The notes under the pieces were generated by a model. That model worked only from the letters and a program-made list of their open reading frames with translations, searched no databases and was not told the DNA's origin. From contig JAGLYV010000054.1 in the NCBI GenBank assembly GCA_023131975.1, positions 5,191-69,190 on the forward strand: DNA of 64,000 nt. Direction: 5' to 3'. Both the position numbers and the translations under genes were made by a program. This DNA comes from Candidatus Krumholzibacteriia bacterium. GTDB taxonomy: Bacteria > Krumholzibacteriota > Krumholzibacteriia > Krumholzibacteriales > Krumholzibacteriaceae. Positions 7,790-54,421 of this stretch are shown piece after piece; the stretch's first letter is position 1, and every line of letters starts with the position of its first letter.

Positions 7790-9516
7790 TCAGACGGACG
7801 ATACTGTTTCTCCTGGTACCTCTTCTTGTTTCATGCGCCGAGGCGCCTCCCGATCTATCAGTGGCCCGAACCCCTGATGAGATCTGTGAGGATCTCGAGA
7901 TAGAGATCAGGACATCCCTCTTCGATGAGGATTACAAGGAAGTCAGGAAATCTGGTCTGCGATATATCGAGCAGTGTGAAGGAGCCGATAATATCGATGA
8001 TGTGAGACTGATTACGGGCAGGGCCTGCGTGGAAACCGGACACCTTACGGAAGCCAGGAATATACTGCTTCCCGTTACAGAAGTCGGTGTTTCGTCTCCA
8101 GGCAGGGGTGAGGCTTTTCTTATACTTGCAGGGATAGACCGGGGCAGGGGACTTTTCTATGATGCTGCTGTCTCGTTGCTCGAGGCTCTTTCTTCGGGCC
8201 TTGGCGACGCGTCAAGGATGACTGCCAGGGAAAGTCTGCGTGAAGTGACATCCCTGATGCCGGAGGGCCGACTTGAACGTGTGAGGGATGAATACGGATC
8301 CTTCGACGGAATAGGAATAGTCCTCGAGGCGTGTCTGATCTTTGCGGTGGCGGACAGCGATACTTCGAAGGTGAGGATGCTGAGAGAGCATCTCAGTTCT
8401 ATCGATGAAAAACGGACTGTACCCGACAGGGCTGTCAGCAGGAATATCATCTCGTCTGTGACAGAAAGCAGTGAGGATAGTGATCTGGCAGGTATGAGAC
8501 TCGGGCTTCTCTGCCCCTTGAGTGGCAGGTTCTCGCCGCTCGGAGAAGCTTTTCTCTGGGGTGCCTCCATAGCGATGAAGGAGGGTGCGAAAAGAGGAAT
8601 GGGAGGAGTGGAGCTGGTCGTCGGCGATACGGGCGCAAATCCTCTTACCGCGCTGAATGTTGCCAGAAGGATGGTAGATGAGGAAAAAGTATCCGCCATT
8701 GCCGGGTGTGTCCTCAGCGCGCCTACGATAGCGGCTTCGCAGGTCGCTCAGGTAGAGGGCGTAGTCATGTTTTCTACGGTCGCTACGGAGACCGGCATAT
8801 CCGGGATCGGTGATCATATATTCCAGGCGGGAACTGATCAACACACGGAGATCGCGGCTATCGCCTGGATAGCCTGCGTCGAGATGGAACTTGAGAGGAT
8901 AGCCTTTCTGTCGTCCGAAGATCCCGTATCAAGAAAGACAGAGCGGTTGTTCCGGGAGAATGTCGAACGTTTCGGGTCTTCCCTCGTGATCAGTGATTTT
9001 TACGATGAGGGCAGTACCGATTTCCTTGCGAATATCGAACGTATCAGAGGGGCGAGTCCTGATGCCCTGTTTATCGCGTCTGACGCAGAAGACCTCATAC
9101 TTATTCTGCCCCAGTTGTCGTTTTATGAATTCGGAGTCCAGTTGTTCGGATCGAGTTCATGGAATTCACGAAATCTGATCAGGATGACAGCAAGAGATAT
9201 GGAAAGCGCGGTCTTTCCCGCCGAGAGTGATATCAGCGGTGAAGAACAGATACTACGGTCTGCCGCCGCCATGGTCGACGATCAGAACGGAGAGGTCAAC
9301 AGGTTCTCTACGGGTGGATATATAGGGGTGAGCAAGATGCTCGAAGTCATGAAAGACGCCATGGAATCGGGCAGAGATCTTCGTGACGAGATGGAGAAGA
9401 ACCTGGAGAACAGGCAGCATCGGTACATCGAGCTGGTCAGTGGTGACGGGATCGTATTCTACACGATCAGGAACGAGAGACTTGTCAGGTTCACGACCCT
9501 TCGTCTTTCCCATTAA
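7786..9516 (+). CDS. Lipoprotein with N-terminal helical (TPR-like) domain and C-terminal LivK-type periplasmic-binding (PBP type 1) domain; LpoA-like architecture
   Basis: A lipobox LLVSCA is present. A Peripla_BP_6-like core follows (GLLCPLSGRFSPLGEA...VELVVGDTGANP...VSAIAGCVLSAPTIAASQV). The N-terminal ~230 aa are helical. Confidence 0.55.
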   Translation: MIRRTILFLLVPLLVSCAEAPPDLSVARTPDEICEDLEIEIRTSLFDEDYKEVRKSGLRYIEQCEGADNIDDVRLITGRACVETGHLTEARNILLPVTEVGVSSPGRGEAFLILAGIDRGRGLFYDAAVSLLEALSSGLGDASRMTARESLREVTSLMPEGRLERVRDEYGSFDGIGIVLEACLIFAVADSDTSKVRMLREHLSSIDEKRTVPDRAVSRNIISSVTESSEDSDLAGMRLGLLCPLSGRFSPLGEAFLWGASIAMKEGAKRGMGGVELVVGDTGANPLTALNVARRMVDEEKVSAIAGCVLSAPTIAASQVAQVEGVVMFSTVATETGISGIGDHIFQAGTDQHTEIAAIAWIACVEMELERIAFLSSEDPVSRKTERLFRENVERFGSSLVISDFYDEGSTDFLANIERIRGASPDALFIASDAEDLILILPQLSFYEFGVQLFGSSSWNSRNLIRMTARDMESAVFPAESDISGEEQILRSAAAMVDDQNGEVNRFSTGGYIGVSKMLEVMKDAMESGRDLRDEMEKNLENRQHRYIELVSGDGIVFYTIRNERLVRFTTLRLSH

Positions 9517-10175
9517 TTCAGCTTGAAGCTGATCAGAAAACTGACCCAGAAAGATTGCGGTTCACCATTTTCCGTCACCGGTTTGAATCGGAACTGCTTT
9601 ACCGCTACCAGCGATGCCGTTTCGAAACTCTCTATGCCATATACCTTTCTTACCCAGGCTTCCGCTACGCGACCGGTTTTGTCTATATACACTTCGACCA
9701 GTACGTAGCCTTCCTTTCTCAGGGCCAGGGCATCTTCGGGATAGGCAGGTTTAACCATATTGAGGATGACGTAATCCTCCCTGAAAGGGACCGCAGTGTG
9801 CGAAGGGTAGGTCCTTAGAAAATCTCTGCCGGTCACATCATCAAAGACCTCTTCCACTTCTTTCTCCGGGGCGGTGCTGAGCTCGGGGTCATCCTCTTCG
9901 ACATCCCTTTCATCGTCGCTGACAAGTTCGATCTCCCTGGCCACCATGTCGTGGCGTTCTTCCGAGAATATCTCTGCCTCGATACTCTTGTCGTCAATGA
10001 TAGTGATTTCGGGGAGGATCCGCAGCGGTCCCTGGTAACCGACCGAGAAAAACTTGTCTACGATCTGAGTATGCTCTATCGTCATCAGTATGATAATCAG
10101 GACCAGGAATGCTACTGGAAGCAGGTAGGCGAGCCTCTTTGTGCGTCGCTTGTCGTAGTCTATGATCTTGCCCAT
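9513..10175 (-). CDS. TonB family protein (N-terminal membrane anchor, acidic linker, TonB_C domain)
   Basis: The C-terminal YPEDALALRKEGYVLVEVYIDKTGRV...FKP matches the TonB C-terminal domain. An N-terminal TM helix is present. Its stop overlaps the convergent upstream gene by 4 nt. Confidence 0.7.
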   Translation of the reverse strand: MGKIIDYDKRRTKRLAYLLPVAFLVLIIILMTIEHTQIVDKFFSVGYQGPLRILPEITIIDDKSIEAEIFSEERHDMVAREIELVSDDERDVEEDDPELSTAPEKEVEEVFDDVTGRDFLRTYPSHTAVPFREDYVILNMVKPAYPEDALALRKEGYVLVEVYIDKTGRVAEAWVRKVYGIESFETASLVAVKQFRFKPVTENGEPQSFWVSFLISFKLN

Positions 10176-10265: not shown

Positions 10266-12563
10266 TCAATCGATATCGATCGAGATCTTTCCGTCCACTG
10301 CCGAATCCGTATCGATTTCCAACATGCCGGGAGCGTCACCGACAGGAAGAGATATTGTGATAAAATGCCTGCCCTCATCCAGGCAATAGAATGCGGCATT
10401 TCCATCTACTCCTGTCGTAGCGGAAAAGACTCCGTCGACCGAAATATGTGCCTGTCCTACCGGGACGCCGTTTTTTGTCAGGTGGATCGAATATGGCGAA
10501 CATGGATGTTGCCCCTGGGAGAAGAACAGTATAAGGCCGGCGGCGATCCTGGAGGATTCAAGCTCGAGCCAGACTGGATTACGGAATATCTTTTCTGTGG
10601 AACTCCCCAGTGGTGCGAACACGGCGCAGGCGGGGCAGGATGTCTGCTGCAAGAAGAGGGATGCTGACTCTATGACCTCTGTTTCCGCGGCTGGAGGAAC
10701 GCCGGCAAGCGTGTTCATCAGGTGTTCTGCCGCCATTTTTCCCCGCGTGCTGCCGGGATAATGGTGGAAAGTGAATTTCGATTCGTTCTGGCCGGACGGG
10801 CCTCCGAATCTGAGGCCGAGAGCCAGGTGCGGAGCGAACCTGTTCACCTTGTCGATCCTTTCGTAGATCGAAAGTGTCTCTTCGCCTTTTCTTGTCATCA
10901 GGACCCTCGCTCCTGCTGATTCGAGAATATCTTTTACCCTTTTCGCGAGTTCGAGGTTTATCGTCGACCCTCTCACGAGGTCTGGGCTGATGCCGTAACT
11001 ATCATCGCCTCCTCCGGCCGGATCGAGAACCACCCGGCGTCCCTGGAGGATGCCTCCGAACACCGGGGAAAGCCCGAACACCGGGCTCTTGACAGCATCT
11101 TCTGTCGTCAGTGGGTGGGGGCGGTATCCCTTTGCTGAGAGGATCATGCGCTGTTCGAAAAGTGACAGTGGAAGTTCAAGCAGACCTTTCTCATCACCCG
11201 TCCTTGATGTTCCGTCCGGCAGTAAAAGCAGGGGGGTATCGACTGGTCTGCGCGACGAGGCGTCTACGATTTCAATAGTCAACCCGGTCGCGCCGGACAG
11301 GGCGAATAGTATGGTGTCGCACTTGTCATATGACGAGACACGAAAGCTCTCATGGGCGTCCGATGAGGGACATGTAAAAGAGATCAGACCACCGGAGGTC
11401 CTGACTCTGGAGATATGGCCCCCTGAGAGGGAGGCTGCCCTCACCGGCGTTCCGTCGGAAACGGGTCCGCCAAGTTCATCCAGTATGCTTATTGACAGGG
11501 AAAGCATGCCATCGGAAAGCCTGCGGGGCGGCATTGGAAGAAAGAACCTTGCCGGCCTGTCGACTGTTATGCTGACAGGATTACTGACCGAGCGGGCTCC
11601 TCCGGTCGAACGTACGGAAGCCCTGAAAGAATACTGGCCGTTCGGTATTGCCGCAGGGATGGGACATGAAAGGATCCCTTTTACGGGAGCCCAGACGGAG
11701 CCGAGTTCCCGGCCGTTCATCGTGACTCGCATAGAGCCGGGTTCGATGGCTATTCCCGCGCCTCTTTTTACGCTGAACGATATCGATCCGGGGAGAAAAA
11801 GTGTATCGCTGCTGGAAACGATATGCTCGATGATCGGGACTCCGCGAGAGAAATATGAAAGGAGACCGAGAAAATACGCTTCCGCCTCCAGTCTCTGCAG
11901 GGTCGATATTTTCAGGCGTTTTTCTACTTCGGGATGCGATATGTAGCTTGCTTCTCCGAGGATAGAGGCCCCCGCGTCAGAGTTTCTGAGTACATGGTAA
12001 TTGCCCGGTTTGATACAGGAGGTCTCTATTCCGAGGTTTCTGGCGAGGTGAATGTGTATATCCTCTGCCAGTTCAAGTGACGCGGAAGGGTCCGAACTCC
12101 GGTAGTAGACTTCGATACGGTTGCGTTTTCTGTCCAGAGAGATATGCGAGTTGTGATGGATAGAGATGAAGACTTCAGGCTCGAATCGGTTAGCGAGTTC
12201 TGTCCGTGCCGCAAGATCATCCCTGAGTTCTTCAGAACCAGCAGGAAGAAAATCACGGTCTGTCGATCTTGTCAGGTGGACATCCGCGCCCGCTTCATCG
12301 AGCATGCCCCAGAGGTAGAGGGCGACACCCAGATTGGCATCAGATTCTGTCAGACTGTCCACACCGACAGCGCCTCTGAAACTGCCACCATGCCCCGGGT
12401 CGATTACGATCCTCCGGTCTTCAAGAACGCTCTGGTCGAATGTTCCCGGTTCCTCACTGAGCTGGTTGTACAGAGCGTCCCATTCCGATATGTGGTGAGC
12501 ACAACCTGCCACCATTCCGGCTATAAGGCTGGCAATCACGGTTTTAAACAGTAATTTCTTCAT
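10266..12563 (-). CDS. N-acetylmuramoyl-L-alanine amidase family lipoprotein with two Amidase_3-like domains; the second is degenerate
   Basis: The ATG at 12563 (minus) is preceded by AAGGAGA. A lipobox MVAGCA is present. The first domain carries IVIDPGHGG. The second carries VVLDPAGGGDD, where the His is replaced. The gene is co-directional with the downstream TonB. Confidence 0.7.
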   Translation of the reverse strand: MKKLLFKTVIASLIAGMVAGCAHHISEWDALYNQLSEEPGTFDQSVLEDRRIVIDPGHGGSFRGAVGVDSLTESDANLGVALYLWGMLDEAGADVHLTRSTDRDFLPAGSEELRDDLAARTELANRFEPEVFISIHHNSHISLDRKRNRIEVYYRSSDPSASLELAEDIHIHLARNLGIETSCIKPGNYHVLRNSDAGASILGEASYISHPEVEKRLKISTLQRLEAEAYFLGLLSYFSRGVPIIEHIVSSSDTLFLPGSISFSVKRGAGIAIEPGSMRVTMNGRELGSVWAPVKGILSCPIPAAIPNGQYSFRASVRSTGGARSVSNPVSITVDRPARFFLPMPPRRLSDGMLSLSISILDELGGPVSDGTPVRAASLSGGHISRVRTSGGLISFTCPSSDAHESFRVSSYDKCDTILFALSGATGLTIEIVDASSRRPVDTPLLLLPDGTSRTGDEKGLLELPLSLFEQRMILSAKGYRPHPLTTEDAVKSPVFGLSPVFGGILQGRRVVLDPAGGGDDSYGISPDLVRGSTINLELAKRVKDILESAGARVLMTRKGEETLSIYERIDKVNRFAPHLALGLRFGGPSGQNESKFTFHHYPGSTRGKMAAEHLMNTLAGVPPAAETEVIESASLFLQQTSCPACAVFAPLGSSTEKIFRNPVWLELESSRIAAGLILFFSQGQHPCSPYSIHLTKNGVPVGQAHISVDGVFSATTGVDGNAAFYCLDEGRHFITISLPVGDAPGMLEIDTDSAVDGKISIDID

Positions 12564-12691
12564 ATTGGTCTCCTTCCGGGAGTAATTGTCCCCCGAAAAC
12601 ATCTTTATCAGATAGCAGGTCGCGCTTCAAGACACAAATCGATCTGGAGGCAGGAATAAAAAACTGCGCATTTATCAATATGTTGTGAAAA

Positions 12692-14167
12692 TTGTTGACG
12701 GTTCCCCCAATATATGGTAGAAAATGGCAGGTTGGCACTCTGTTGAACGATTGGAGAAACATCAAGTCGTCGCTGAAGATACTGCCCTCCGTAGAGAGGG
12801 TTCTGGAGGATGAGCGTGTCTCAGAGACTATCAATGTCAACTCCAGAAATGGAATTACCAGGATAACTCGTGATACGATAGAATATTACAGAAATCTTGT
12901 TCTTTCAGGGGAAGATCTTGGTGACGAGGCAGGTATACTTTCCCGGATAAGGGATGAAGTCGCCCGAAAAGTGGAATTGACGGGCAGAACGAGCCAGAGA
13001 AAGGTAATAAATGCCACCGGTGTAGTTCTTCATACCAATCTTGGCAGGGCTCCACTGGGAGATTGTGTGACGGAGTCATTGCTTCGTGCAGCTTCCGGGT
13101 ATATTGATCTTGAAGTGGACCTGGAGACCGGAGAGAGGACTCACAGGGAGAGAAGGGTCATTGAACTGCTCGAACTGATTACCGGGGCCGAAAGCGCTCT
13201 GGTCGTCAACAACACGGCTGCTGCCCTCCTGCTCGCGGTAAATACCTTCGCGGGTGAAGGCACTGTGGCTGTTTCGAGAGGTGAACTGGTCGAAATAGGC
13301 GGCAGTTTCAGACTTCCGGAGATACTCGAAAGGTCGGCTGCCCGTGTCCTGGAGATCGGTACTACCAACAGGACCGACCTGAAGGACTACGAAAGGGCTG
13401 TCGAGGATGGAGCCAGCCTGATACTGAAGGTCCATACGAGTAATTACAGGATCGTCGGATATACCGATGATGTTCCTCTCGGAAGGCTGGCCGAACTGGG
13501 AAAGGCGAAGGACGTTCCTGTGATGTATGATCAGGGGAGCGGTATCCTCTTCCCGCTCGGGAAAGAGGGTATAAGTGGTGAGGCCGATATCGGGTCTCTT
13601 TTGTCCACCGGCGTGGACATAATGACTTTCAGCGGAGACAAGGTGTTGGGTGGACCGCAGGCAGGGATCATAATCGGGCGAAGACGTTATATAGAACAGA
13701 TGAAAAAGAACCATCTGTCCCGGGCGCTTAGAGTCGATAAACTGACGCTTGCATGCCTTGAAGCCGTTCTGGTGAGATATTGGCGGGGAGAAACAGCCAT
13801 GATCCCGGCGCTGCACATGATAATGACTACCAGGGATGAGATAGCGGAAAGGGCAGAGAGCTTTTCGGCGGCACTCAGGGAAAGAACGGGAGAGACCGTG
13901 GAGATCGAGGTCGTCGAGGGAGAATCCTCGATAGGAGGAGGTAGTTTTCCTCTCGATCCTTTGCCGACTGCTCTTGTGGAGATACGGATCGGTAAAAGTC
14001 GGGCATCCAGACTGGCTGGTAGTATGAGGGGCATGGATCCCGCAGTATTTGTTCGGATTAAAGAAGAAAGTCTATATCTTGATATGAGGACAGTCGCGGA
14101 AGACGAGGAACAGATCCTTCTGGACAGCCTCGAAGAGGGAATAAATAGATTCTCAGGGAAGGAATGA
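12692..14167 (+). CDS. selA: L-seryl-tRNA(Sec) selenium transferase (selenocysteine synthase) family
   Basis: The PLP-lysine motif FSGDKVLGGPQAGII is present along with other SelA blocks (VINATGVVLHTNLGRAPL, IGGSFRLPE). The start is uncertain: it is either TTG 12692 or a downstream TTG. A TTGACG/TAGAAA promoter-like element lies at 12695-12723. Confidence 0.75.
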   Translation: MLTVPPIYGRKWQVGTLLNDWRNIKSSLKILPSVERVLEDERVSETINVNSRNGITRITRDTIEYYRNLVLSGEDLGDEAGILSRIRDEVARKVELTGRTSQRKVINATGVVLHTNLGRAPLGDCVTESLLRAASGYIDLEVDLETGERTHRERRVIELLELITGAESALVVNNTAAALLLAVNTFAGEGTVAVSRGELVEIGGSFRLPEILERSAARVLEIGTTNRTDLKDYERAVEDGASLILKVHTSNYRIVGYTDDVPLGRLAELGKAKDVPVMYDQGSGILFPLGKEGISGEADIGSLLSTGVDIMTFSGDKVLGGPQAGIIIGRRRYIEQMKKNHLSRALRVDKLTLACLEAVLVRYWRGETAMIPALHMIMTTRDEIAERAESFSAALRERTGETVEIEVVEGESSIGGGSFPLDPLPTALVEIRIGKSRASRLAGSMRGMDPAVFVRIKEESLYLDMRTVAEDEEQILLDSLEEGINRFSGKE

Positions 14168-15693
14168 TGAGCATGGGTGATGAAAGTAAATGCTTTCCAG
14201 GTGAAGACCCGAAAAAGGGTTTTGGCGGAGAAGGTTTCTCCATATTCCTCGATGAATCGGAGATGCTTACTTTCATGGAGGAGGGCGATTTTTCCTCTTC
14301 GCGCGACCTTGAACATTTCAGTGCCATCAGTTCGGGTTTCGAGAAAAAACTGAAAGATGGCGGCGGATTCTCTCTGCTTGCCCTTTCAGCCAGCGGGGAG
14401 AGGATCTCAAGAGATTTTACTGTACTCCAGGTAGCGCATAACCTGGCGAAACACGGAAAAAAAGTCCTTATCGTGGACTGTGATTTTCTGGCCCCGGGCT
14501 TGAGCGGACTGATCAGGAATATCGAGGATCATGGATTCCTGGACCTTCTTCTGTACGGCAGCTCGCTGAAATCGGTGTTGCAGACTACCGGTATAGATAA
14601 CGTCAATGTGACTGGCCCCGGGTCGTTTCCCGTATCGAGGACGATTCCGTTTGCCCTGAAGGAATTTTCGAAGGTCCGTGATTTCCTGGCAGGAAAAGCT
14701 GATGTGGTCATCTATTGTTCGACCCTCTACGCGGAGGACGAGGCCATCAACCCGCTGCTCGGAATGGCGGATAGTATTCTTCTATGTTGCAGGATAGACG
14801 ATCTGGAAGAGGGTGGTCTCGAAAAGAGGATTTCTGACACGGGCGAGTACGCGTCAAAGGTCGATCTTATCTGTTTCTGCAGTCGCATGGGAGATTCGGT
14901 AGCCGAAGAGGTACCGGAAACGACTTCCACCGTTCCTGATATTGAAGACGAGGGTGAAGATATCCTGGATCTCGATCCTGAATCCGAGATACCGGAAACA
15001 ATAGAAGAGGACAAAGATCTGGAACCGGCATTTCTGGAGAAATCGGAAGAGATCGATTCGATGAGGAAAAGAGGCCGGGGCGGGATCAGTCTACCAAGGG
15101 TATTAGCGATCGGCATTCCGGCCGTGGTCGTGGCCTTTGTCGTCTGGTGGGTCATGCTCGAGAGATCCACTCAGGAGCAGGAGGGCGCCGGAAAGATGAC
15201 TGAGCTTGTGCAGAAACAACAGGATGTCCGGGAGATGGCGGCGCGTACCGGAGGATTGGATTCCGCGGAAGCTGGTCTCGTCGAGGGCACAGGTACGGAG
15301 CAGGATCTGGCTGTAGAAGACAATGCAGGAGAAGAGACTGAGGGCACTGCCGGGCAGGAAACCGGAGACCTGGAGACTGAACTGGAGGGAACCGGGGAAA
15401 ATGTCGTAGATGAAGAACCGGTGCCTGAAATCCGGACTCCCGCGCCCGCGGGTTCGTATTATACCATTCATGTCGCCTCATTCAAGGATGTGTCGAGAGC
15501 CGGCACGGAGACCGATTATCTTGAGGATAACGGATATGAGGTGAGCGTGAAGGAAGTGGATGTAAAGGGTGGATCCTGGTACAGGGTCTATGTCGGTGAA
15601 TTTGATAACAGGGAAGAGGCTGAGGCGATCAGGGTGCAGTTGGGAGAGTTGAGACGGATCGCCTACACAAGAGTAGTGACATTGAAATATTAG
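14164..15693 (+). CDS. Cell-division-type SPOR-domain protein with N-terminal degenerate P-loop (BY-kinase/MinD-like) domain, one TM helix and C-terminal SPOR domain
   Basis: The C-terminal YYTIHVASF...GGSWYRVYVGEFDNREEAEAIRVQL is a SPOR domain. A TM helix LAIGIPAVVVAFVVWWVML and an acidic linker precede it. The N-domain aligns to CapB/Wzc/MinD: the Walker A' LIVDCDFLAP is kept, but the Walker A is replaced by ALSASGERIS. Confidence 0.6.
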   Translation: MMSMGDESKCFPGEDPKKGFGGEGFSIFLDESEMLTFMEEGDFSSSRDLEHFSAISSGFEKKLKDGGGFSLLALSASGERISRDFTVLQVAHNLAKHGKKVLIVDCDFLAPGLSGLIRNIEDHGFLDLLLYGSSLKSVLQTTGIDNVNVTGPGSFPVSRTIPFALKEFSKVRDFLAGKADVVIYCSTLYAEDEAINPLLGMADSILLCCRIDDLEEGGLEKRISDTGEYASKVDLICFCSRMGDSVAEEVPETTSTVPDIEDEGEDILDLDPESEIPETIEEDKDLEPAFLEKSEEIDSMRKRGRGGISLPRVLAIGIPAVVVAFVVWWVMLERSTQEQEGAGKMTELVQKQQDVREMAARTGGLDSAEAGLVEGTGTEQDLAVEDNAGEETEGTAGQETGDLETELEGTGENVVDEEPVPEIRTPAPAGSYYTIHVASFKDVSRAGTETDYLEDNGYEVSVKEVDVKGGSWYRVYVGEFDNREEAEAIRVQLGELRRIAYTRVVTLKY

Positions 15694-15726: not shown

Positions 15727-18700
15727 GTGAGTCTATCGAGGCTTGAGCTGGTTGGGTTTAAATCTTTCATGTCTCCCGTTAGCCTGAATTTTCGTGAAGG
15801 GGTGACGGCCATACTTGGGCCGAACGGATGCGGAAAGACGAATGTCGTCGATGCGGTCAGGTGGGTCCTGGGTGAACAGAGCGCCCGTCAGCTGAGAAGC
15901 AGCAAAATGGAGAATGTCATATTTAACGGGACGCAGATACACAAGCCTCTGGGCTATGCGGCCGTCAATATGACTATCAGCAACGAAAAGGGTTATTTCC
16001 CGGTAGACTATTCGGAGATCACAATAACGAGAAAAGTATATCGTTCCGGTATAAGCGAATATTTTATCAACAAGACTCCATGCAGGCTGAAGGATATTAG
16101 GGAGCTTTTCGCCGATACGGGCACAGGCAGTCACTCATACGCTGTGATCGAGCAGGAGATGATAGAGTATGTCCTGAATGACGCTCACGGCGAACGGCGA
16201 AACATGTTTGAGGAAGCTTCGGGTATTGTCAAATACAGGATGAGAAGGGAAGAAGCGAAGAGAAAGCTCAAACTTACGGAAGCTGATCTTCTCCGCCTGG
16301 ATGATATTCTCGATGAGCTTGACAAGAATGTGCGTTCGCTCAAGTACCAGGTGGGTAAGACGAGGCGTTACAAGACGCTCAGTGAAAGGATCAGGCAGTG
16401 GAGTATGATAAGGCTCCGGTCCACCCTTTCCAATCTCCTCTCTGAAAAAAGGGTGGCTGAGGAAGATCTGTCAAAATCGATGGATATTTCCAGGCAGGAT
16501 GACGATTCGCTGGGCGAGAATCAGAAGAATGTGGAAGAAGCAAAGCTCAAGCTGATCGAGCATGAACAGCGGAACACGGACCTTCAGAACCGCAGGTATG
16601 AAGTTCGCAGGCGGATACAGACTTCCGAGGAAAAGATCATCCAGTATACCGAGCGTAAGGGTGAAGCGGAAAGAAAGATCAAGCGGGCCATCCATGAGAT
16701 CGAGGAGGCCAGGGTCCGTATCGAGAAGATCACCGGCAGGATAAGCGGAGCCAGAGTGGAGGAGGATGTTACGTCCGAGAAGATCGTTCTGGAACGTGAA
16801 GAAATAAAAAATCTTGGAGGAAGGTTTGAGGAAATATCGGTGCGGATCGAGAGGATACAGTCCGAACTGATCGATTTGAAACAGACTCAGCTCGATTTTC
16901 TTCAGGATCAGGTCAGGGTCAAGAGCAGCCAGGAACATTTCGAGGCCGTTTTGAAAGAGCTCGATGAGAGGTCATTGCAGCTGAGGGAACGTATATTGGG
17001 ACTCGAGATCGAGACCGCGGACCTGGCAGGCCTCAAGGGCGAGAGGGAATCCGCTTTGTCCGATCAGCAGGAAAGACTCAATATGCTGGAGAAGGCACGC
17101 GAAGAATCCACGTCCATGATCGAATCGGTCGGAGAATCTCTTTCCCGGAGGGAACGGTCACTGGCGGAGATGAATACAGAGCTGGCCAGGCTGAGGAGCA
17201 GGCATGACCTGTATATCAGGATGAAGGAAAATTTCGAAGGGTTCCCCGGCGGAGCCCGTTACATCCTGAAAAAGAGTGACGACCATGTAAGAGGTCCGTT
17301 GGCCGAGATCATGAAGATAGACGATGTCTACAGACCAGCTCTCGAATCTGTGCTGGGAGGAATGACAGACGGTGTCGTGGTGGACAGTATGGCGGGAGCG
17401 ATGGGTCTGATCGAAGAGCTTTCATCCAAGAAGCTGGGTGGGGTCAGACTGTTTGTCGAGAAGATGGACCGTACAGGCCAGAACGAAGTTCCCAAGGACA
17501 TTCCCGGACTGATCGGCAGGTTGAGTTCTCTCATCGAGATCGACGCCGCGAAACAGGGAATGATCGAGGCACTTCTCGGGACGACACTCGTATTCGAGGA
17601 TCCCGACAGCGCTCTTTCTTTTATCGGTTCTGAAGCTGGAGATGTGTTCGACGCTGTGACTGTAACCGGAATATATTTCTGCAAGGGCAAGGGTATCTAC
17701 TTCTGCGGTTCTCCCGGTGAAGAGGTCTCTTTACTCGGAAGAGCTGAAGAGATAGAGAAGATGGGGGAGAATATCGGAACTCTCACACGGGATGCTTCGG
17801 AGGAAGAAACCGGATGTGAAAGAGAAAAGAGAGAGAAAGAAGAGCTTCGGAAAAAAGTGTCCGAGCTTGATTCGAATATAGCCGCCGCCAGGGACGAAGT
17901 GGCTGATAGTCGGGAGAAGACGAGGGAAGTCGAGCGCGATTATATTATGAAAAAGGAAAAGTGTTCCCTTCTCATGAAATCGATGGATGAGATCGAGAAC
18001 TCCCGTGTTGAAACGTTGTCAAAGCTGGAGGAAGCCAGGCTTGCCCTCTCGATGCATCAGAGTACAGGCGATGTTTCCAGGGTCACGATCCTGGAAACTG
18101 AACTTTCTACTCTACTCGACGAGAAAACCCGGCATGAGAGTGCTTTGACCGAAAAGAAAGTCGACCTTGCCTCTCTGCAGGGTATCCTGGACAGGCACAG
18201 GGAGGAGATCAAGGGGCTGGAAGAGATGACGAAGCAGTTCCAGGCGATCACGGAGCAGCGGTCCGGAGAGATCGAGACATCCAGGGAAGAATCTTCGGAG
18301 CTTCTTGTCGGTATAGAAGAGGAGAGGTCGATCGTCGGAGAACATGTCCGTCAGGAGACTGAATTCCAGCAGGAGATAGATGAACTGGCGGGCCTGCTTG
18401 AAGAGAAACGTTCGGTGATAAATAGTATGGAAAAGGATATCAGGGAGAGGCAGCAGGCCAGGGAAAGGATCTTTACACAGATCAACGAAGTAAAGATAAG
18501 ACTTTCCAACCTGGATACAAGGATGTCCGACACCGTCGAAAAGGCCCGGGAACTGTACGACGAGGATCTGAACTGCTACCTGGAAGGAGTCGAGATACCT
18601 CTGACGGAGGAAGAGAAGGAGGTCACTCCCGACCTGCTCGAGAGTGAGAAGAGAAAGCTGGGTAGCCTGGGTCCCGTGAATCTTGCCGCGATCGAAGAAT

Positions 18701-19332
18701 ATGACGAAAAGAAGGAACGTCTCGATTTCCTCGTGACTCAGAAGGATGACCTGGTTCACGCAAAGGAAGAACTCGAACAGGCGATAACGAAGATCAACAA
18801 GAGAGCGAGAAAGCTTTTTGTCGAGACTTTCGATATAGTGAAAGGACATTTCGCGCAGATATTCGAGGTATTGTTCGAAGGGGGCGAAGCTTCGTTGAGC
18901 CTCGGGGAAAACAGCGATCCGCTCGAGGCTGATATCATCATCTCGGCCAGGCCGAAGGGCAAACGGCTGCAGGATATATCTCTGTTGTCCGGCGGCGAAA
19001 GAGCCCTGACGGCCATATCTCTTCTGTTCGCGCTGTACAAGGCAAAGCCCAGTCCGTTCTGTATCTTCGACGAAGTCGACGCGCCTCTGGACGACGCCAA
19101 TATTGAGAGGTTCGTCAGAATGCTCAAGAAATTCTCGGAAGAGACGCAATTCATCATAATCACGCATAACAAGCGGACTATGGAAGCTGCCGATTCTCTC
19201 TTCGGAGTGACGATGCAGGAGAAGGGTGTTTCAAAGATTGTATCGGTCAACCTGACCGAGATCGAGGATGTAATGGAAAGCCGTAAGACTTCAGTAGATG
19301 AGGCGATCGCTGTGCCTGTATCATCGAATTAG
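15727..19332 (+). CDS. smc: Chromosome segregation protein SMC
   Basis: An N-terminal Walker A LGPNGCGKTNVVDAV is present. Long coiled-coil regions and a hinge follow. The C-terminal signature is LSGGERALTAISLLFAL plus a Walker B FCIFDEVDAPLD. The length is 1201 aa. Confidence 0.9.
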   Translation: MSLSRLELVGFKSFMSPVSLNFREGVTAILGPNGCGKTNVVDAVRWVLGEQSARQLRSSKMENVIFNGTQIHKPLGYAAVNMTISNEKGYFPVDYSEITITRKVYRSGISEYFINKTPCRLKDIRELFADTGTGSHSYAVIEQEMIEYVLNDAHGERRNMFEEASGIVKYRMRREEAKRKLKLTEADLLRLDDILDELDKNVRSLKYQVGKTRRYKTLSERIRQWSMIRLRSTLSNLLSEKRVAEEDLSKSMDISRQDDDSLGENQKNVEEAKLKLIEHEQRNTDLQNRRYEVRRRIQTSEEKIIQYTERKGEAERKIKRAIHEIEEARVRIEKITGRISGARVEEDVTSEKIVLEREEIKNLGGRFEEISVRIERIQSELIDLKQTQLDFLQDQVRVKSSQEHFEAVLKELDERSLQLRERILGLEIETADLAGLKGERESALSDQQERLNMLEKAREESTSMIESVGESLSRRERSLAEMNTELARLRSRHDLYIRMKENFEGFPGGARYILKKSDDHVRGPLAEIMKIDDVYRPALESVLGGMTDGVVVDSMAGAMGLIEELSSKKLGGVRLFVEKMDRTGQNEVPKDIPGLIGRLSSLIEIDAAKQGMIEALLGTTLVFEDPDSALSFIGSEAGDVFDAVTVTGIYFCKGKGIYFCGSPGEEVSLLGRAEEIEKMGENIGTLTRDASEEETGCEREKREKEELRKKVSELDSNIAAARDEVADSREKTREVERDYIMKKEKCSLLMKSMDEIENSRVETLSKLEEARLALSMHQSTGDVSRVTILETELSTLLDEKTRHESALTEKKVDLASLQGILDRHREEIKGLEEMTKQFQAITEQRSGEIETSREESSELLVGIEEERSIVGEHVRQETEFQQEIDELAGLLEEKRSVINSMEKDIRERQQARERIFTQINEVKIRLSNLDTRMSDTVEKARELYDEDLNCYLEGVEIPLTEEEKEVTPDLLESEKRKLGSLGPVNLAAIEEYDEKKERLDFLVTQKDDLVHAKEELEQAITKINKRARKLFVETFDIVKGHFAQIFEVLFEGGEASLSLGENSDPLEADIIISARPKGKRLQDISLLSGGERALTAISLLFALYKAKPSPFCIFDEVDAPLDDANIERFVRMLKKFSEETQFIIITHNKRTMEAADSLFGVTMQEKGVSKIVSVNLTEIEDVMESRKTSVDEAIAVPVSSN

Positions 19333-19346
19333 GAAGCGGTGAGAGA

Positions 19347-20240
19347 TTGAAACACCTTTTCAGAGGTCTGAAGAAAACCAGGGACCGTCTGTTCGGCCCG
19401 CTCCAGAAGATATTTTCCAGTGGAAGACTGAATGAAGAGGATATCGAGGAACTCGAGTCCCTTCTTTTCTCCGCGGATATCGGAGTCGATACGACAGAGA
19501 GGATCATCGAAAAAGTCAGGGAGAGGCTCCGTTCGGGATCCGGTCCGGACCCGGATTTTATCTCGCTGGTCTCAGATGAATTGCTCGGTGTGATGGATGA
19601 GTTGCCCCCCTACAAAGAACCCGAGGGTGTTCCGAGAGTGATCGTTATCACAGGGGTGAACGGTGTCGGAAAGACTTCGACCATCGGTAAGCTCGCTGGA
19701 CTCTTCAAGGCTGAAGGAAAAAGCGTGATGCTTGCCGCCTGTGATACTTTCAGGGCTGCTGCCATCGATCAACTTGAACTCTGGGCGGAGAAGACCGGCG
19801 TACCCGTGGTGAGGCAGAAGATGGGTTCGGATCCCGCAGCCGTTGCTTTTGACGCGGTGAGTTCAGCTAAAGCAAAGGGCATCGACATAGTGATCGTGGA
19901 TACCGCCGGCAGGCTTCATACCAAAGCTAATCTGATGGAAGAACTCAGAAAGATATTCAGGGTGCTTTCAGGGAAAATAGAGGGAATAGCCATCGAATCG
20001 TGGCTTGTTCTCGATGCAAACTCCGGGCAGAACAGCCTCAGGCAGGCAGAGGTGTTTGTAAAGGATCTCCCGGTGACCGGACTGGTCCTTACAAAGCTTG
20101 ACAGTACGGCCAAAGGGGGCGTTGTGATCCCTGTCCAGAAGAATCTGGGGATACCGGTCCTCTATGCGGGGACGGGTGAGGGGTTGGATGATATAGAACC
20201 GTTCGACCACAATGCTTTCGTGGAAGCACTGCTCCTCTGA
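19347..20240 (+). CDS. ftsY: Signal recognition particle receptor FtsY (short form, NG domain only)
   Basis: SRP GTPase motifs are present: GVNGVGKTST, DTAGR and TKLD. The start is TTG. Confidence 0.85.
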   Translation: MKHLFRGLKKTRDRLFGPLQKIFSSGRLNEEDIEELESLLFSADIGVDTTERIIEKVRERLRSGSGPDPDFISLVSDELLGVMDELPPYKEPEGVPRVIVITGVNGVGKTSTIGKLAGLFKAEGKSVMLAACDTFRAAAIDQLELWAEKTGVPVVRQKMGSDPAAVAFDAVSSAKAKGIDIVIVDTAGRLHTKANLMEELRKIFRVLSGKIEGIAIESWLVLDANSGQNSLRQAEVFVKDLPVTGLVLTKLDSTAKGGVVIPVQKNLGIPVLYAGTGEGLDDIEPFDHNAFVEALLL

Positions 20241-20259: not shown

Positions 20260-20287
20260 TTGACAAGGTAGCATAATCAGATATAAT
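20260..20287 (+). promoter_or_regulatory. Consensus sigma70 promoter (TTGACA, 16-bp spacer, TATAAT) driving the FMN riboswitch / rib operon
   Basis: TTGACA lies at 20260-20265 and TATAAT at 20282-20287, both perfect hexamers. The element lies about 30 nt upstream of the riboswitch aptamer. Confidence 0.65.
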
Positions 20288-20440: not shown

Positions 20441-20548
20441 TGCGCGGCATCGGCCCTATGTGGGCTTGTGCCTTGTCCCTTCGTATCCCCGAAAACCCTT
20501 ATTCAGTGCCGCCGGACCGGAATATCATTGAGTGACGAAATAAAATAT

Positions 20549-27570: not shown

Positions 27571-30135
27571 ATGACTGACAGGTCCGTGAACCGGATTACC
27601 GCATTGGCGATATTCCTGACAAGCCTGATCGTCTACCTGATGACGATGGCTGTGACTGTGTCCTTCTGGGACGCGGGGGAGTTTATCGCGGCGTCATATT
27701 CTCTGGGAATACCACATTCTCCCGGCACACCGCTCTATGTGCTTGTCGGCCGGGTATTCTGCCTGCTGCCTGTAGCCATGTCGGCAGCACAGAAGGTCAA
27801 TCTTCTTTCGACGGTATCCGCTGCCCTCGGAGTGCTGATGGCCTACCTCATCATGGCGAACGTGGTCAGGATGATGTTCGGTGCCGGAAGAACGGCTGCC
27901 GGCAGGTTTATCAGGTTAGCGGGACCGGTGATAGGCTCCTTTTATCTGATGTTCAGCAGTACCTACTGGACGAACGCGTCCGAGTCGGAAGTCTACGCGC
28001 TCAGCACGTTTGTCATGGGCTTCTGCTGTGTCCTCGTTTTGAGATGGCTCAAGAATCCATCCGGAGAGGTAGATGATCTGACGAGGTCACGGATCACAGA
28101 GTCAGCTACGCCTCAGGAAGTCAAGGTGATCCTCGGCAGGGAAGAGGAGAAAAGGAAAAGACATTCGACCAGCCTTATCCTCCTCATCGTTTACCTTCTT
28201 TCTCTCGGGATAGGGTTTCATCTTGGTACGGTGATGGTATACGGAGGAATCTTTTTCATGATACTGATGGTCAGGGAGAAGACCTTCAGCAATTTCGAAC
28301 TTATCGTATTTACATTCGGCTTCGCGGTCATAGTAGCTGATATGACGCTGCACAAACAATCCAACCTGACGATCATAGGGTTGGTCATACTTGCGATACT
28401 TGTCATGTGGACGGTGATGTCGAAGGGCAAGTTCGCTCTTGTCGCCTCGCTTCTTTTCTTTCTGGGGATATCGGTGCATCTCTTTCTGCTGATACGGTCG
28501 CATATGAACCCCGAACTCGACATGGTCGATCCAGAGACGTGGCGGGCACTCTACGCGCATCTTCGCAGAGAACAGTATCCACCGATGAATGTCTTTGTAC
28601 GCAAGGCTTCGCCCCTGTGGCAGACGGGACAGTTTCTCAGGTACTTTGTCGACCAGTTCCGTATTCTCGGCGATGTAAAGGCCGGACCGCTGAACATCGG
28701 AGCCCTTTCAGTGTTTATTCCGACGGCCCTCGGCCTGTACGGGATAGGGGTCAATTTCCTGCGTGAGCGGAAGACCTGGGTATTGAATTTTACGAACCTG
28801 GCAGTTCACACGATCGGTATGATCATCCTCCTCAACTTCAGCGACCACGAGCCCAGGGAGAGAGACTATTTCTACGGCCCCGGATTCTATTTCTTTTCAT
28901 TGTTCATCGGGATCGGTGCCAGTTCGATGCTCATGATGCTGGCCGGACATCTCCGCGAATCAGGGAAAAAGATCGCTCGGGTAGTCATTCCTGTCGGAGT
29001 GATACTGATTGTCTTTTCGATACTTCCCGCCCGGGTTCACTGGTTCAGTCACGACAGGTCCGACAACTGGCTGGCAAGAGACTACGCATACAATATGCTG
29101 ACAGGCTGTGAGCCGGATGCCATTCTTATCACAAACGGGGATAACGACACCTATCCTCTATGGTACATACAGACTGTCGAGGGCTACAGACGTGACGTGA
29201 AAGTGGTCAACAGGATGCTTCTCAATACCGCATGGTATGTCAAGCAGCTGAGGGATCATGAACCGCCTGTTCCGATAGAACTGACCGATATCGAGATCGA
29301 AAGACTCCGGCCGGTAAGGGACTCGAGGGACGGTAGTATCATTTGGACTTACACAAGGGTGCTGGACCATATTGTCAGGACGACGAACTGGAAGAGGCCG
29401 ATATATTTCGGGGTGACCGTTCCCAAGGAAGTATGGGAGGTGTATGCCGACTACCTGGAGATGCAGGGTATGGTGAGGAGGCTTGTCGCCAGGAAGGGCC
29501 GCTACATGGTCAATGATTTCCAGATGGCGAGGAATATGAGAGATATATTCGAGTACAGGGGGGTCCTGAACGAGGATGGCACAGCGGACACTTCTCTGTT
29601 CAAATCGCTCGATGTGACGACGATGTATCAGAATTACTCGGTTGCCACCATGCAGCTCGCTTTTAATAAGGGAAGAAAAAATGAATATCCCGAGGCCATA
29701 GAGTGGGCGGAGATGTCGTTCGCGATCAGTCCGACATTCGACTGGGGGCGGAAGGAACTGGGTATCTACTACATGCATAACAGGCAATACGACAAGGCAA
29801 TCGAGTATTTCAAGTCTGAACAGGTGCGTGATCCGGACAACTGTGATTTTCATCTCGGAGTGGCTGCCGTTTATGAGGCCATGGGCGACCTCGATTCCGC
29901 GCTGGACGCCCTGGCTCGCTCATCTGACGAGATGATAGCCTGCAGGGATATCTTCACCCATGGATTCAATATCGCCGCCAGGCTGGGTAGAAGGGCAAGG
30001 GCGAAGGAATTTGTGAAGAAGTGGCTGGATCTGCATCCCGAAGACAGGGAGATGGCAAACTTTTACGCGGATATAGACCGGATCCTTGATCAGGAGACCG
30101 CCGCGGAAGATTCTGTCGATTCCGGGGGAGAATAG
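27571..30135 (+). CDS. DUF2723 / TMEM260-like GT-C membrane glycosyltransferase with C-terminal TPR repeats (paralog 1)
   Basis: The N-terminal hallmark VSFWDAGEFIAASYSLGIPHSPGTPLYV is present. A polytopic membrane domain of ~480 aa is followed by a soluble TPR-like C-terminal domain. Confidence 0.75.
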   Translation: MTDRSVNRITALAIFLTSLIVYLMTMAVTVSFWDAGEFIAASYSLGIPHSPGTPLYVLVGRVFCLLPVAMSAAQKVNLLSTVSAALGVLMAYLIMANVVRMMFGAGRTAAGRFIRLAGPVIGSFYLMFSSTYWTNASESEVYALSTFVMGFCCVLVLRWLKNPSGEVDDLTRSRITESATPQEVKVILGREEEKRKRHSTSLILLIVYLLSLGIGFHLGTVMVYGGIFFMILMVREKTFSNFELIVFTFGFAVIVADMTLHKQSNLTIIGLVILAILVMWTVMSKGKFALVASLLFFLGISVHLFLLIRSHMNPELDMVDPETWRALYAHLRREQYPPMNVFVRKASPLWQTGQFLRYFVDQFRILGDVKAGPLNIGALSVFIPTALGLYGIGVNFLRERKTWVLNFTNLAVHTIGMIILLNFSDHEPRERDYFYGPGFYFFSLFIGIGASSMLMMLAGHLRESGKKIARVVIPVGVILIVFSILPARVHWFSHDRSDNWLARDYAYNMLTGCEPDAILITNGDNDTYPLWYIQTVEGYRRDVKVVNRMLLNTAWYVKQLRDHEPPVPIELTDIEIERLRPVRDSRDGSIIWTYTRVLDHIVRTTNWKRPIYFGVTVPKEVWEVYADYLEMQGMVRRLVARKGRYMVNDFQMARNMRDIFEYRGVLNEDGTADTSLFKSLDVTTMYQNYSVATMQLAFNKGRKNEYPEAIEWAEMSFAISPTFDWGRKELGIYYMHNRQYDKAIEYFKSEQVRDPDNCDFHLGVAAVYEAMGDLDSALDALARSSDEMIACRDIFTHGFNIAARLGRRARAKEFVKKWLDLHPEDREMANFYADIDRILDQETAAEDSVDSGGE

Positions 30136-30201
30136 ATTCCGGGGGAGAAGATATTTCACCGGGTGAATGAATGCCAGCCGGACAGACTCGTTAGGAAGAA
30201 T

Positions 30202-53999: not shown

Positions 54000-54421
54000 A
54001 GACACACACTGATTATCTTGACGCTGTAACGCTGGTCATCAAGAGAGCCCTCGAGGGCAGGATCAGCCCATTGAACTTTCTTCTGATAGTGGGGTTTTTC
54101 TCGACCCTTGTCCTTCTTTACATATCGCTTCATGTACATTTTCAGACCCTGTCCGGGGAACTGAACGATGAAGTACGGCTCAGACAGGAGCTGACCGAGG
54201 AAAGGACATTCCTGACAGCAGAACACGATCGACTCAGTTCGCCTGAGAGGATCATACCCCTCGTGCAGGAACTTGGGTTGAGAGCCGGTTCAAGCGAAGA
54301 GGTAAAGAGAGTAGCTTTTTATAACAGCCGGAAGCTTTTTAAAAAAGAATCGGCCGGCTGGGCACAGATACAGCTTAACGAAGGCGGGAAATTACTTCCG
54401 CCTGACAGACCGGAGAATTGA
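53996..54421 (+). CDS. ftsL: Cell division protein FtsL-like (bitopic, coiled coil)
   Basis: A single TM helix LLIVGFFSTLVLLYISL and a periplasmic coiled coil are present. It sits between rsmH and ftsI. Confidence 0.6.
   Translation: MKTHTDYLDAVTLVIKRALEGRISPLNFLLIVGFFSTLVLLYISLHVHFQTLSGELNDEVRLRQELTEERTFLTAEHDRLSSPERIIPLVQELGLRAGSSEEVKRVAFYNSRKLFKKESAGWAQIQLNEGGKLLPPDRPEN

Follow-up and report, generated by a model that had tools for sequence, protein, structure and literature searches.

An inactivated BY-kinase fold joined to a SPOR domain: a candidate division-site protein of Krumholzibacteriota and Latescibacterota

Background

What could a cell do with a kinase fold that has lost its catalytic residues and is joined, through a single membrane helix, to a domain of the peptidoglycan-binding SPOR family? 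This question is raised by gene X, which lies between selA and smc in a 64,000-nucleotide stretch of DNA from Candidatus Krumholzibacteriia bacterium (assembly GCA_023131975.1, contig JAGLYV010000054.1, positions 5,191 to 69,190 of the forward strand; this whole stretch is hereafter the window, and coordinates refer to it). A first-pass annotation, made from the letters alone, had described X as an inactive cytoplasmic module of the BY-kinase or MinD type fused to a periplasmic SPOR domain. The reading that we favor, at a probability of about 60%, is that X is a division-site SPOR protein with a bacterial tyrosine kinase (BY) pseudokinase scaffold.

Nearly all that is understood of BY-kinase-fold proteins, pseudokinases included, concerns their regulation of polysaccharide co-polymerases (PCPs). 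In the X family the fold is permanently inactivated, fused to a peptidoglycan-binding module and, next to smc in two or more candidate phyla, constrained as tightly as a housekeeping gene.

The N-terminal domain has a BY-kinase fold without the kinase motifs

The structure of X was modelled with AlphaFold2 from 24 homologs. In the model, residues 23-240 (the N-domain) form an alpha/beta fold with pLDDT of ~70-90, residues 242-307 are disordered, a long helix at residues 310-362 includes a hydrophobic segment, residues 363-421 are again disordered, and the SPOR domain is confidently predicted at residues 430-508. When the N-domain was compared with the PDB using Foldseek, each of the top 50 matches was a BY-kinase domain (Wzc, CapAB chimeras, Etk, VpsO or BceF), with E-values down to 4.5e-10 and target TM-scores up to 0.78. 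ParA/MinD proteins appear in fold comparison as matches of second rank. Sequence matches are consistent with this assignment and are all below threshold. The best NCBIfam match was the BY-kinase model TIGR01007 (E=2e-8), followed by TIGR03018, EpsG and Wzc, all far under their cutoffs. A sequence search of the PDB with X returned CapB (E=1.3e-3), BceF and MinD, with Soj also weakly matched, and Pfam gave sub-threshold P-loop matches at residues 81-148 to AAA_31, CbiA and NifH (E ~0.015 for CbiA and AAA_31). Because the Foldseek ranking is uniform at the top, the comparison is decisive, for the modelled domain, in assigning the BY-kinase fold specifically and not that of MinD. The structure comparison that the first-pass annotation had called for therefore returned a P-loop fold, and the pseudo-BY-kinase half of its label stands while the MinD-like half is to be dropped.

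Catalytic BY-kinases share a Walker A motif GxxxxGK[ST], a Walker A' motif hhhhDxDxR (VLLIDCDMR in Wzc), a Walker B motif hhhDTPP, a C-terminal tyrosine cluster and an EX2RX2R motif on helix alpha2 (PMC9800525). These features were mapped onto X by an HMMER alignment to CapB together with the Wzc motif definitions of the same paper, and residues were counted over 227 N-domain-bearing proteins, split by divergence into tiers 1, 2 and 3. At the Walker A position X reads S77-G-E-R-I-S-R83-D84, such that the Lys-Ser/Thr pair is replaced by R83-D84, just past the stretch that had been quoted as evidence of the loss. Arg stands at the Lys position in 133/133 tier 1, 42/44 tier 2 and 30/35 tier 3 proteins, and Lys was not among the residues seen there in any tier; D84 is present in 131/133 tier 1 proteins. 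A regular-expression screen found no canonical P-loop in X or in 144 distant representatives. Since none of the proteins examined has an intact Walker A, sequencing error can be excluded, and with it the prospect that a corrected sequence would restore the motif.

The other motifs have fared similarly. The Walker A' stretch, which the first-pass annotation took to be kept, retains both aspartates (V101-L-I-V-D105-C-D107-F-L) but has lost the motif Arg, now Leu109; D105 is found in 134/134, 45/46 and 40/41 proteins of tiers 1, 2 and 3, and D107 in 134/134 of tier 1. Walker B is replaced, as proposed, by V-V-I-Y-C185-S-T-L. The position of its Asp is occupied by Cys in 130/133 tier 1 proteins, by Cys, Val, Thr or Ser in tier 2 and mostly by Val in tier 3, and Asp is absent from the residues listed for every tier. 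The oligomerisation motif EX2RX2R has become E50-H-F-S53-A-I-S56, with the family variable at positions 53 (K/N/I/R) and 56 (G/E/S/A). There is also no tyrosine cluster, as not a single Tyr occurs across the 67 residues (241-307) after the N-domain. Judging from these alignments, the kinase machinery is gone across the whole X family.

Other positions in the domain are strongly conserved. G124, G132 and S134 are invariant in family alignments A1, A3 and A4, and in the alignment to BceF the near-universal elements G124-x2-D127-x3-[YFW]-G132-x-S134 and G153-S154 fall on the BY-kinase regions GLSxLL and GxxPxNP. R83, D84, D105 and D107, invariant in tier 1, sit in the former nucleotide pocket together with C106 and C185. 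Six cysteines of the N-domain (C106, C185, C208/C209, C237 and C239, encoded at 14479, 14716, 14785-14790, 14872 and 14878) are highly conserved in Krumholzibacteriota; for example, C185 is found in 130/133, C209 in 131/133 and C237 in 131/132 proteins. C106 and C185 are conserved in tiers 1 and 2, and all six are lost in the deepest lineages (tier 3), in which the fold and the architecture persist. An Fe-S or Zn site was considered for these residues and not adopted, given their loss in tier 3 and the inheritance of C106 from the DCD motif of BY-kinases.

The SPOR domain and the membrane tether

SPOR (PF05036) is the sole Pfam family above threshold in X, matching residues 430-494 above the curated threshold with E=1.9e-13. 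SPOR domains bind glycan strands from which the peptides have been removed by amidases, and their key features are a highly conserved glycan-contacting Gln (RlpA Q270, equivalent to FtsN Q251 and DamX Q351), the residue FtsN S254 and a patch of basic residues, FtsN R285 among them (PMC6895207). In a profile alignment to the FtsN SPOR domain, Q251 corresponds to H436, S254 to S439 and R285 to R474. S439 and R474 are near-universal in every tier, and so is W472, which lies two residues ahead of R474. As far as these columns can tell, the SPOR domain of X is clearly under selection for a binding face. The FtsN equivalog model TIGR02223 scores 16.1 bits against a cutoff of 107.65, and its match is limited to residues 433-493, within the SPOR domain. 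In the SPOR-only proteins that were retrieved alongside X, the Gln position holds His in 30 and Gln in 4.

The N-domain and the SPOR domain are separated by an acidic linker, a single transmembrane (TM) segment and a second acidic linker. The TM segment corresponds to one hydrophobic helix of ~23 residues (~310-332) with RKRGR on its N-side. Because RKRGR precedes the hydrophobic helix, the predicted topology is N-in and C-out, which would place the SPOR domain in the periplasm. All tiers, from Krumholzibacteriota out to the groups that differ most, share a motif in this region, [S/N]-x-P-R-x11-F-x2-W-W (15094-15150). In alignment A1 its R312 and F325 do not vary and W329 hardly does, and in A3 almost every protein has W328 and W329. 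This conservation hints at a conserved intramembrane or juxtamembrane contact. The helix that follows (334-362) has a mean identity of 0.34 and is conserved only within Krumholzibacteriota, not in tier 3. The cytoplasmic linker (241-307) carries a net charge of -17 and holds a semi-conserved P-x-F-[IL]-E-K-[ST]-E-E-I, in which tier 1 proteins almost always keep E292 and K293; the 66 residues of the periplasmic linker (363-428) carry a net charge of -19 at pLDDT <50. The acidic linker, single TM helix and C-terminal SPOR domain of the first-pass annotation are thus borne out by Pfam, the structure model, the hydrophobicity scan and charge counts.

The reading frame and its start

That X is a real gene, as had been claimed, is supported by its place in the list of open reading frames (ORFs), by an identical (100%) NCBI protein (P0001, 506 aa, annotated as a SPOR domain-containing protein of Candidatus Krumholzibacteria bacterium) and by 190 homologous clusters found in a word-indexed search. 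An artefact of gene fusion or frameshift was considered and ruled out, as there is one ORF with an identical order of parts in at least 190 clusters. The identical protein begins at codon 4 of X. This codon, M4 (nucleotide 14173), is also the first residue of the family alignment, in which homologs open with MGDE, and a ribosome-binding site, GGAAGGA, lies at 14155-14161, within the 3' end of selA and just 5' of X. For these reasons the real start is probably at 14173. The selA stop codon occupies 14165-14167, and the choice of start decides whether the two genes share a 4-nt overlap (ATGA), as the first-pass annotation had it, or are separated by a 5-nt gap, as they would be with M4. Under either start the two genes are tightly coupled.

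Spread of the family and its rate of change

The fusion is not peculiar to the window. Among the 190 clusters, every one of the 120 listed carries Pfam SPOR only; nearly all of these match the query over >=94% of its length, and the named ones belong to Krumholzibacteriota. An exhaustive HMMER search of 1.84 billion representatives returned 1024 proteins at E<=1e-3 and 172 at E<=1e-10, and some 70 distant representatives (20-35% identity, 465-766 aa) show the same order of N-domain, TM segment and SPOR domain. The architecture is conserved from ~80% to ~20% identity. When the Krumholzibacteriota alignment was compared, profile to profile, with that of the most divergent group, the probability was 100% and E=6e-54 over 455 columns, on which grounds the divergent groups can be considered homologous from end to end.

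A scan of one genome per GTDB species identified 66 loci, in Krumholzibacteriota (37-67% identity), in Latescibacterota (~28%, including the complete chromosomes CP070631 and CP070677) and in one metagenome-assembled genome (MAG) of Chitinivibrionia. The scan patterns were drawn from alignment A3, as the more diverse alignment A2 had no stretch conserved enough for the purpose; they are specific to tiers 1 and 2, such that the scan of named genomes covers these and not the deepest lineages, and several tier 3 groups were not close to any named locus by tblastn. The survey of related genomes that had been proposed for this fusion thus found the same architecture in Krumholzibacteriota, in Latescibacterota, in one Chitinivibrionia genome and in deep lineages. 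Two homologs at 45-46% identity, in the same gene cluster, come from MAGs labelled "Patescibacteria group bacterium" and "Candidatus Latescibacteria bacterium 4484_7" (L020 and L024), which are probably Krumholzibacteriota genomes that are mislabelled or named by an older taxonomy. On the Latescibacterota chromosome CP070631.1 (L053, 5809-8094), the X homolog reads in frame into a complete PhoH-like ATPase domain, giving a protein of 761 aa with SPOR at residues 453-517 and PhoH at 564-749, which may reflect a true fusion, the loss of a stop codon or a fault in the assembly.

Within X, the N-domain is the most conserved part, and across loci it diverges at the rate of SelA and SMC. Mean pairwise identity in Krumholzibacteriota is 0.63 for the N-domain, 0.48 for SPOR, 0.42 for the TM region and ~0.2 for the linkers. 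Relative to the copies in the window, Krumholzibacteriota loci show identities of 52-70% for the N-domain, 50-60% for SelA (leaving out two truncated matches at 44-45%) and 50-71% for full-length SMC. The corresponding ranges for Latescibacterota-type loci are 29-43%, 38-45% and 29-37%.

Gene neighbourhood

The features of X and its neighbours are listed in Table 1. A TonB_C gene and a gene for an Amidase_3 lipoprotein lie on the minus strand, and selA, X, smc and ftsY follow divergently on the plus strand. X precedes smc, as the first-pass annotation had noted, at a distance of 33 nt, and 14 nt separate smc from ftsY. With such short gaps, no terminator-like site seen between the genes and the next strong promoter only after ftsY, these four genes are probably one operon. 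That promoter has a perfect sigma-70 consensus (TTGACA, 16 nt, TATAAT) at 20260-20287 on the plus strand, between ftsY and a riboflavin operon (ribD at 20468), and likely marks the end of the selA-X-smc-ftsY transcription unit.

Table 1. Positions of gene X, its parts and the neighbouring genes in the window
Feature	Position	Strand	Basis or remark
TonB_C gene, downstream of the amidase gene on the same strand	9513-10175	-	
Lipoprotein of 778 aa with two Amidase_3 domains, divergent	10266-12602	-	Pfam Amidase_3, E=3.5e-46, two stretches
selA, upstream of X	12692-14167	+	TIGR00474 equivalog, 515 bits vs cutoff 268
Gene X, whole ORF, 509 aa	14164-15693	+	ORF list; probable true start M4 at 14173
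Cytoplasmic BY-pseudokinase domain, residues 23-240	14230-14883	+	
Degenerate Walker A position, residues 77-85, SGERISRDF	14392-14418	+	CapB alignment
Walker A'-like stretch, residues 101-111, VLIVDCDFLAP	14464-14496	+	D105/D107 kept, motif Arg lost
Near-universal block G124-F-L-D127-L-L-L-Y131-G132-S-S134	14533-14565	+	Aligns to BY-kinase GLSxLL region
Walker B position, residues 180-188, DVVIYCSTL	14701-14727	+	Catalytic Asp replaced by Cys185
Acidic disordered cytoplasmic linker, residues 241-307	14884-15084	+	pLDDT <50, net charge -17, ends RKRGRGG
TM segment, residues 308-333	15085-15162	+	AlphaFold2 helix, hydrophobicity scan
Periplasmic juxtamembrane helix 334-362 and acidic disordered linker 363-428	15163-15447	+	Helix conserved in tier 1 only
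C-terminal SPOR domain, residues 429-509	15448-15690	+	Pfam SPOR
smc	15727-19332	+	Equivalog match
ftsY	19347-20240	+	Equivalog match

Amidase_3 is the enzyme class that makes the SPOR ligand. The predicted lipoprotein in question has a signal peptide ending in VAGC, and it also contains Ig-like and CarboxypepD_reg-like parts. The cluster of a minus-strand amidase gene with selA-X-smc-ftsY recurs in nearly every locus that is long enough, including most Latescibacterota-type loci. Linkage to smc was at one point taken to be specific to Krumholzibacteriota, a notion that was dropped because most Latescibacterota-type and deeper loci also show smc-ftsY. The most persistent neighbour of X is selA, which is present in every lineage examined and translationally coupled to it. 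In one further deep group selA likewise overlaps X by 4 nt, and the long gene after X is truncated where the contig ends and lacks a Pfam record. No tRNA-Sec was found in the 64-kb window.

Two further regions of the window bear on what follows. A glycosylation/polysaccharide region at 24-52 kb encodes GT2 and GT4 transferases, two TMEM260-like mannosyltransferases, YfhO-like and PMT_2-like proteins and a Wzx-like flippase. Among its ORFs that were scanned, none was a Wzz, Wza, PCP or BY-kinase gene, nor did the loci examined show a PCP/Wzz, Wza or true BY-kinase gene beside X. The tandem genes at 27571-30135 and 30163-32751 on the plus strand each encode a protein of ~855 aa in which a TMEM260-like protein O-mannosyltransferase domain is followed by C-terminal TPR repeats. 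From ~53 kb there is a dcw cluster with mraW (53079), ftsI, murE, murF, mraY, murD and ftsW; the FtsI-type transpeptidase at its head (54418-56586, plus strand) has two C-terminal PASTA domains.

A division-site protein with a pseudokinase scaffold

The role that we propose for X can be laid out from the outside of the membrane to the inside. X would be a bitopic protein of the inner membrane, its N-terminus inside and its C-terminus outside. Its periplasmic SPOR domain, carried on a long acidic disordered tether, would bind the denuded glycan strands made by amidases. As amidases make such strands at the septum, a protein bearing this domain would be concentrated there, in the way of FtsN, DamX and DedD. 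The conserved Amidase_3 gene next door lends indirect support to a septal localisation that would depend on amidases. The RKRGR before the TM segment and the acidic low-complexity tethers match the usual layout of SPOR division proteins (PMC6895207). The cytoplasmic domain, on this reading unable to cycle nucleotide or to phosphorylate, would be a nucleotide-independent protein-binding scaffold; with its active site dead, it might work as a fixed interaction module, offering a conserved surface on which a cytoplasmic partner could dock at the site of division. We infer that this partner is itself conserved, which would explain the tight constraint on the N-domain. Candidate partners are the condensin/chromosome-segregation machinery (given the operon with smc), divisome proteins and the enzymes of envelope-polymer synthesis. 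There are precedents that support such a scaffold. The BY pseudokinases EcpK and HfsB have been proposed to scaffold PCP-2 partners without phosphorylation (PMC12004946), and in the pneumococcus the BY-kinase CpsD is a division-site protein that interacts with ParB and has an effect on chromosome segregation (PMC4574921).

Several points weigh against this proposal. The canonical SPOR Gln is His436 (15469-15471) in 129/129 tier 1, 36/38 tier 2 and 38/42 tier 3 proteins, and the change could leave room for an altered ligand specificity. The former nucleotide pocket, with R83, D84, D105 and D107 and with C106 and C185 where these are present, could still hold a ligand, which would make a pure scaffold an incomplete description. 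Gene order is weak evidence for a partner, as it is hard to see what would connect selA with division, and smc and ftsY are often neighbours in other genomes. Moreover, two complete Latescibacterota genomes (L053 and L065) keep the amidase gene and selA-X with other genes in place of smc downstream, and the deepest lineages (L072-L074) keep selA-X-smc-ftsY without an adjacent amidase gene. Finally, the host organisms are uncultured.

A bolder version of the proposal, which we consider rather unlikely, is that X is a core cell-cycle coupler that spans the membrane in the Krumholzibacteriota-Latescibacterota lineage. Here the SPOR domain would sense amidase-processed septal peptidoglycan, and the nucleotide-free domain would recruit or regulate SMC/condensin, the ParB machinery or the divisome. 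If this were true, X would take roles in these phyla that are held elsewhere by FtsN/DamX or by linkages of the CpsD-ParB and MatP type, and it would be the first BY-kinase-fold protein to serve primarily in division or segregation and not in polysaccharide export.

Another possible function lies in polysaccharide export. X could be a scaffold of the EcpK/HfsB or CpsC/D kind for a Wzx/Wzy machine making capsule or exopolysaccharide, with the SPOR domain confining synthesis to the septum so that the daughter cells are wrapped. The known biology of the BY-kinase fold is the control of polysaccharide co-polymerases (PMC9800525), the known BY pseudokinases are proposed to scaffold PCP-2 proteins (PMC12004946), CpsC/D directs capsule synthesis to mid-cell (PMC4574921), and the 24-52 kb region of the window includes a Wzx-like flippase. 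However, no PCP/Wzz, Wza or Wzy-type gene was found beside X in the loci examined or among the polysaccharide genes of the window, X has a single TM segment of its own and no Wzz-type periplasmic domain, and it is a slow-evolving core gene in a housekeeping string, unlike the typically variable polysaccharide loci. We consider this role unlikely. A somewhat different case, also improbable and more so in our judgment, is that X is the equivalent of FtsN as the trigger of septal peptidoglycan synthesis, with helix 334-362 as the counterpart of the FtsN essential domain and the cytoplasmic domain binding FtsA/FtsZ in place of the short N-terminal peptide of FtsN. The bitopic N-in topology, disordered tether and C-terminal SPOR domain are those of FtsN, automated pipelines label homologs FtsN, DedD or DamX, the PR-x11-F-x2-WW motif of all tiers suggests an intramembrane partner, and a dcw cluster lies within the same window. 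But the FtsN model of NCBIfam matches the SPOR part alone and far below its cutoff, nothing was detected that resembles the FtsN essential domain in sequence, and the helix after the TM segment is not conserved beyond Krumholzibacteriota.

The residues kept in the pocket might instead be doing chemistry. R83 and D105 are near-universal and, with D84 and D107, invariant in tier 1, all four mapping to the former nucleotide pocket, and an atypical NTPase or kinase might use them, or a sensor of metal or a small ligand might use the C106/C185 pair conserved in tiers 1 and 2. Such an enzyme would have to do without the glycine-rich loop and without the Lys, Ser/Thr and Walker B Asp, which are replaced in every member, while a cysteine-based sensor is hard to reconcile with the loss of the cysteines in tier 3, where fold and architecture persist, and with the descent of C106 from the BY-kinase DCD motif. 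We regard either as very unlikely. A permanently membrane-tethered positioning protein of the MinD/ParA type, to which the weak CbiA/AAA_31, MinD and Soj sequence matches and the second-rank fold matches could point, is scarcely credible: X lacks the deviant Walker A, KGGxGK[ST], and hence the ATP-dependent dimer switch on which ParA/MinD function is based, its best NCBIfam matches are BY-kinase models, and the fold ranking also disfavours it.

If the favored reading of X as a division-site SPOR protein with a pseudokinase scaffold is true, the range of BY pseudokinases extends to cell division or chromosome segregation. X would then be a candidate for coupling septal wall remodelling to cytoplasmic events in Krumholzibacteriota and Latescibacterota, and its N-domain would define a family of domains missed by the present Pfam and NCBIfam models, whose members carry no more than the label "SPOR domain-containing protein".

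Comparison with known systems

The first-pass annotation had suggested that this architecture is undescribed, and full-text literature searches likewise found no published description. No paper joined "SPOR domain" with "BY-kinase", or with "P-loop" and "domain architecture", and "SPOR domain" and "ParA-like" co-occurred only in papers that, by title and abstract, concern other topics. The automated annotations of JGI name both halves of some homologs, for example "DedD/Mrp family ATPase" (P0105) and "FtsN/Mrp family ATPase" (P0188). X is a genuine, conserved repurposing of the BY-kinase fold that seems to be undescribed; the pipelines see its pieces, which no one appears to have interpreted. 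What is new is the fusion and its genomic context, as BY pseudokinases are already known from EcpK and HfsB (PMC12004946) and both domains are individually familiar.

Set against the catalytic BY-kinases (Wzc, Etk, CapB, VpsO, BceF and CpsD), X shares the fold and fails on five defining features, namely the P-loop Lys-Ser/Thr, the Walker B Asp, the tyrosine cluster, EX2RX2R and linkage to PCP/polysaccharide export. The order of parts also differs. In Wzc the kinase domain is C-terminal and follows TM2, whereas in X it is N-terminal and precedes the TM segment, and there is no Wzz-type periplasmic domain.

Among SPOR proteins, FtsN, DamX and DedD of E. coli resemble X in being single-pass proteins with the N-terminus in, a low-complexity tether and a C-terminal SPOR domain with the glycan-face Ser and Arg. 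X differs from them in its folded BY-kinase-like domain of 218 residues, which is more conserved than its own SPOR domain, and in the His that replaces the SPOR Gln. FtsN and DedD have short peptides on the cytoplasmic side, and the cytoplasmic part of DamX is not known to adopt a P-loop fold. By architecture X thus belongs with the bitopic SPOR division proteins, though it is not FtsN.

The closest parallels to the N-domain are EcpK of Myxococcus xanthus and HfsB of Caulobacter crescentus. These share with X a BY-kinase fold in which Walker A, A' and B no longer function and the tyrosine cluster is missing, and for them, as for X, action by protein-protein contacts in place of phosphorylation is proposed (PMC12004946). 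In contrast to X, which is fused through a TM segment to SPOR and has no PCP neighbour, EcpK and HfsB are free-standing soluble proteins whose genes lie in polysaccharide loci and which pair with a PCP-2. X also differs in lying in the selA-smc-ftsY string and in retaining both Walker A' aspartates. By structure, X is a BY pseudokinase, but its mode is not the stand-alone, PCP-2-paired one of EcpK and HfsB.

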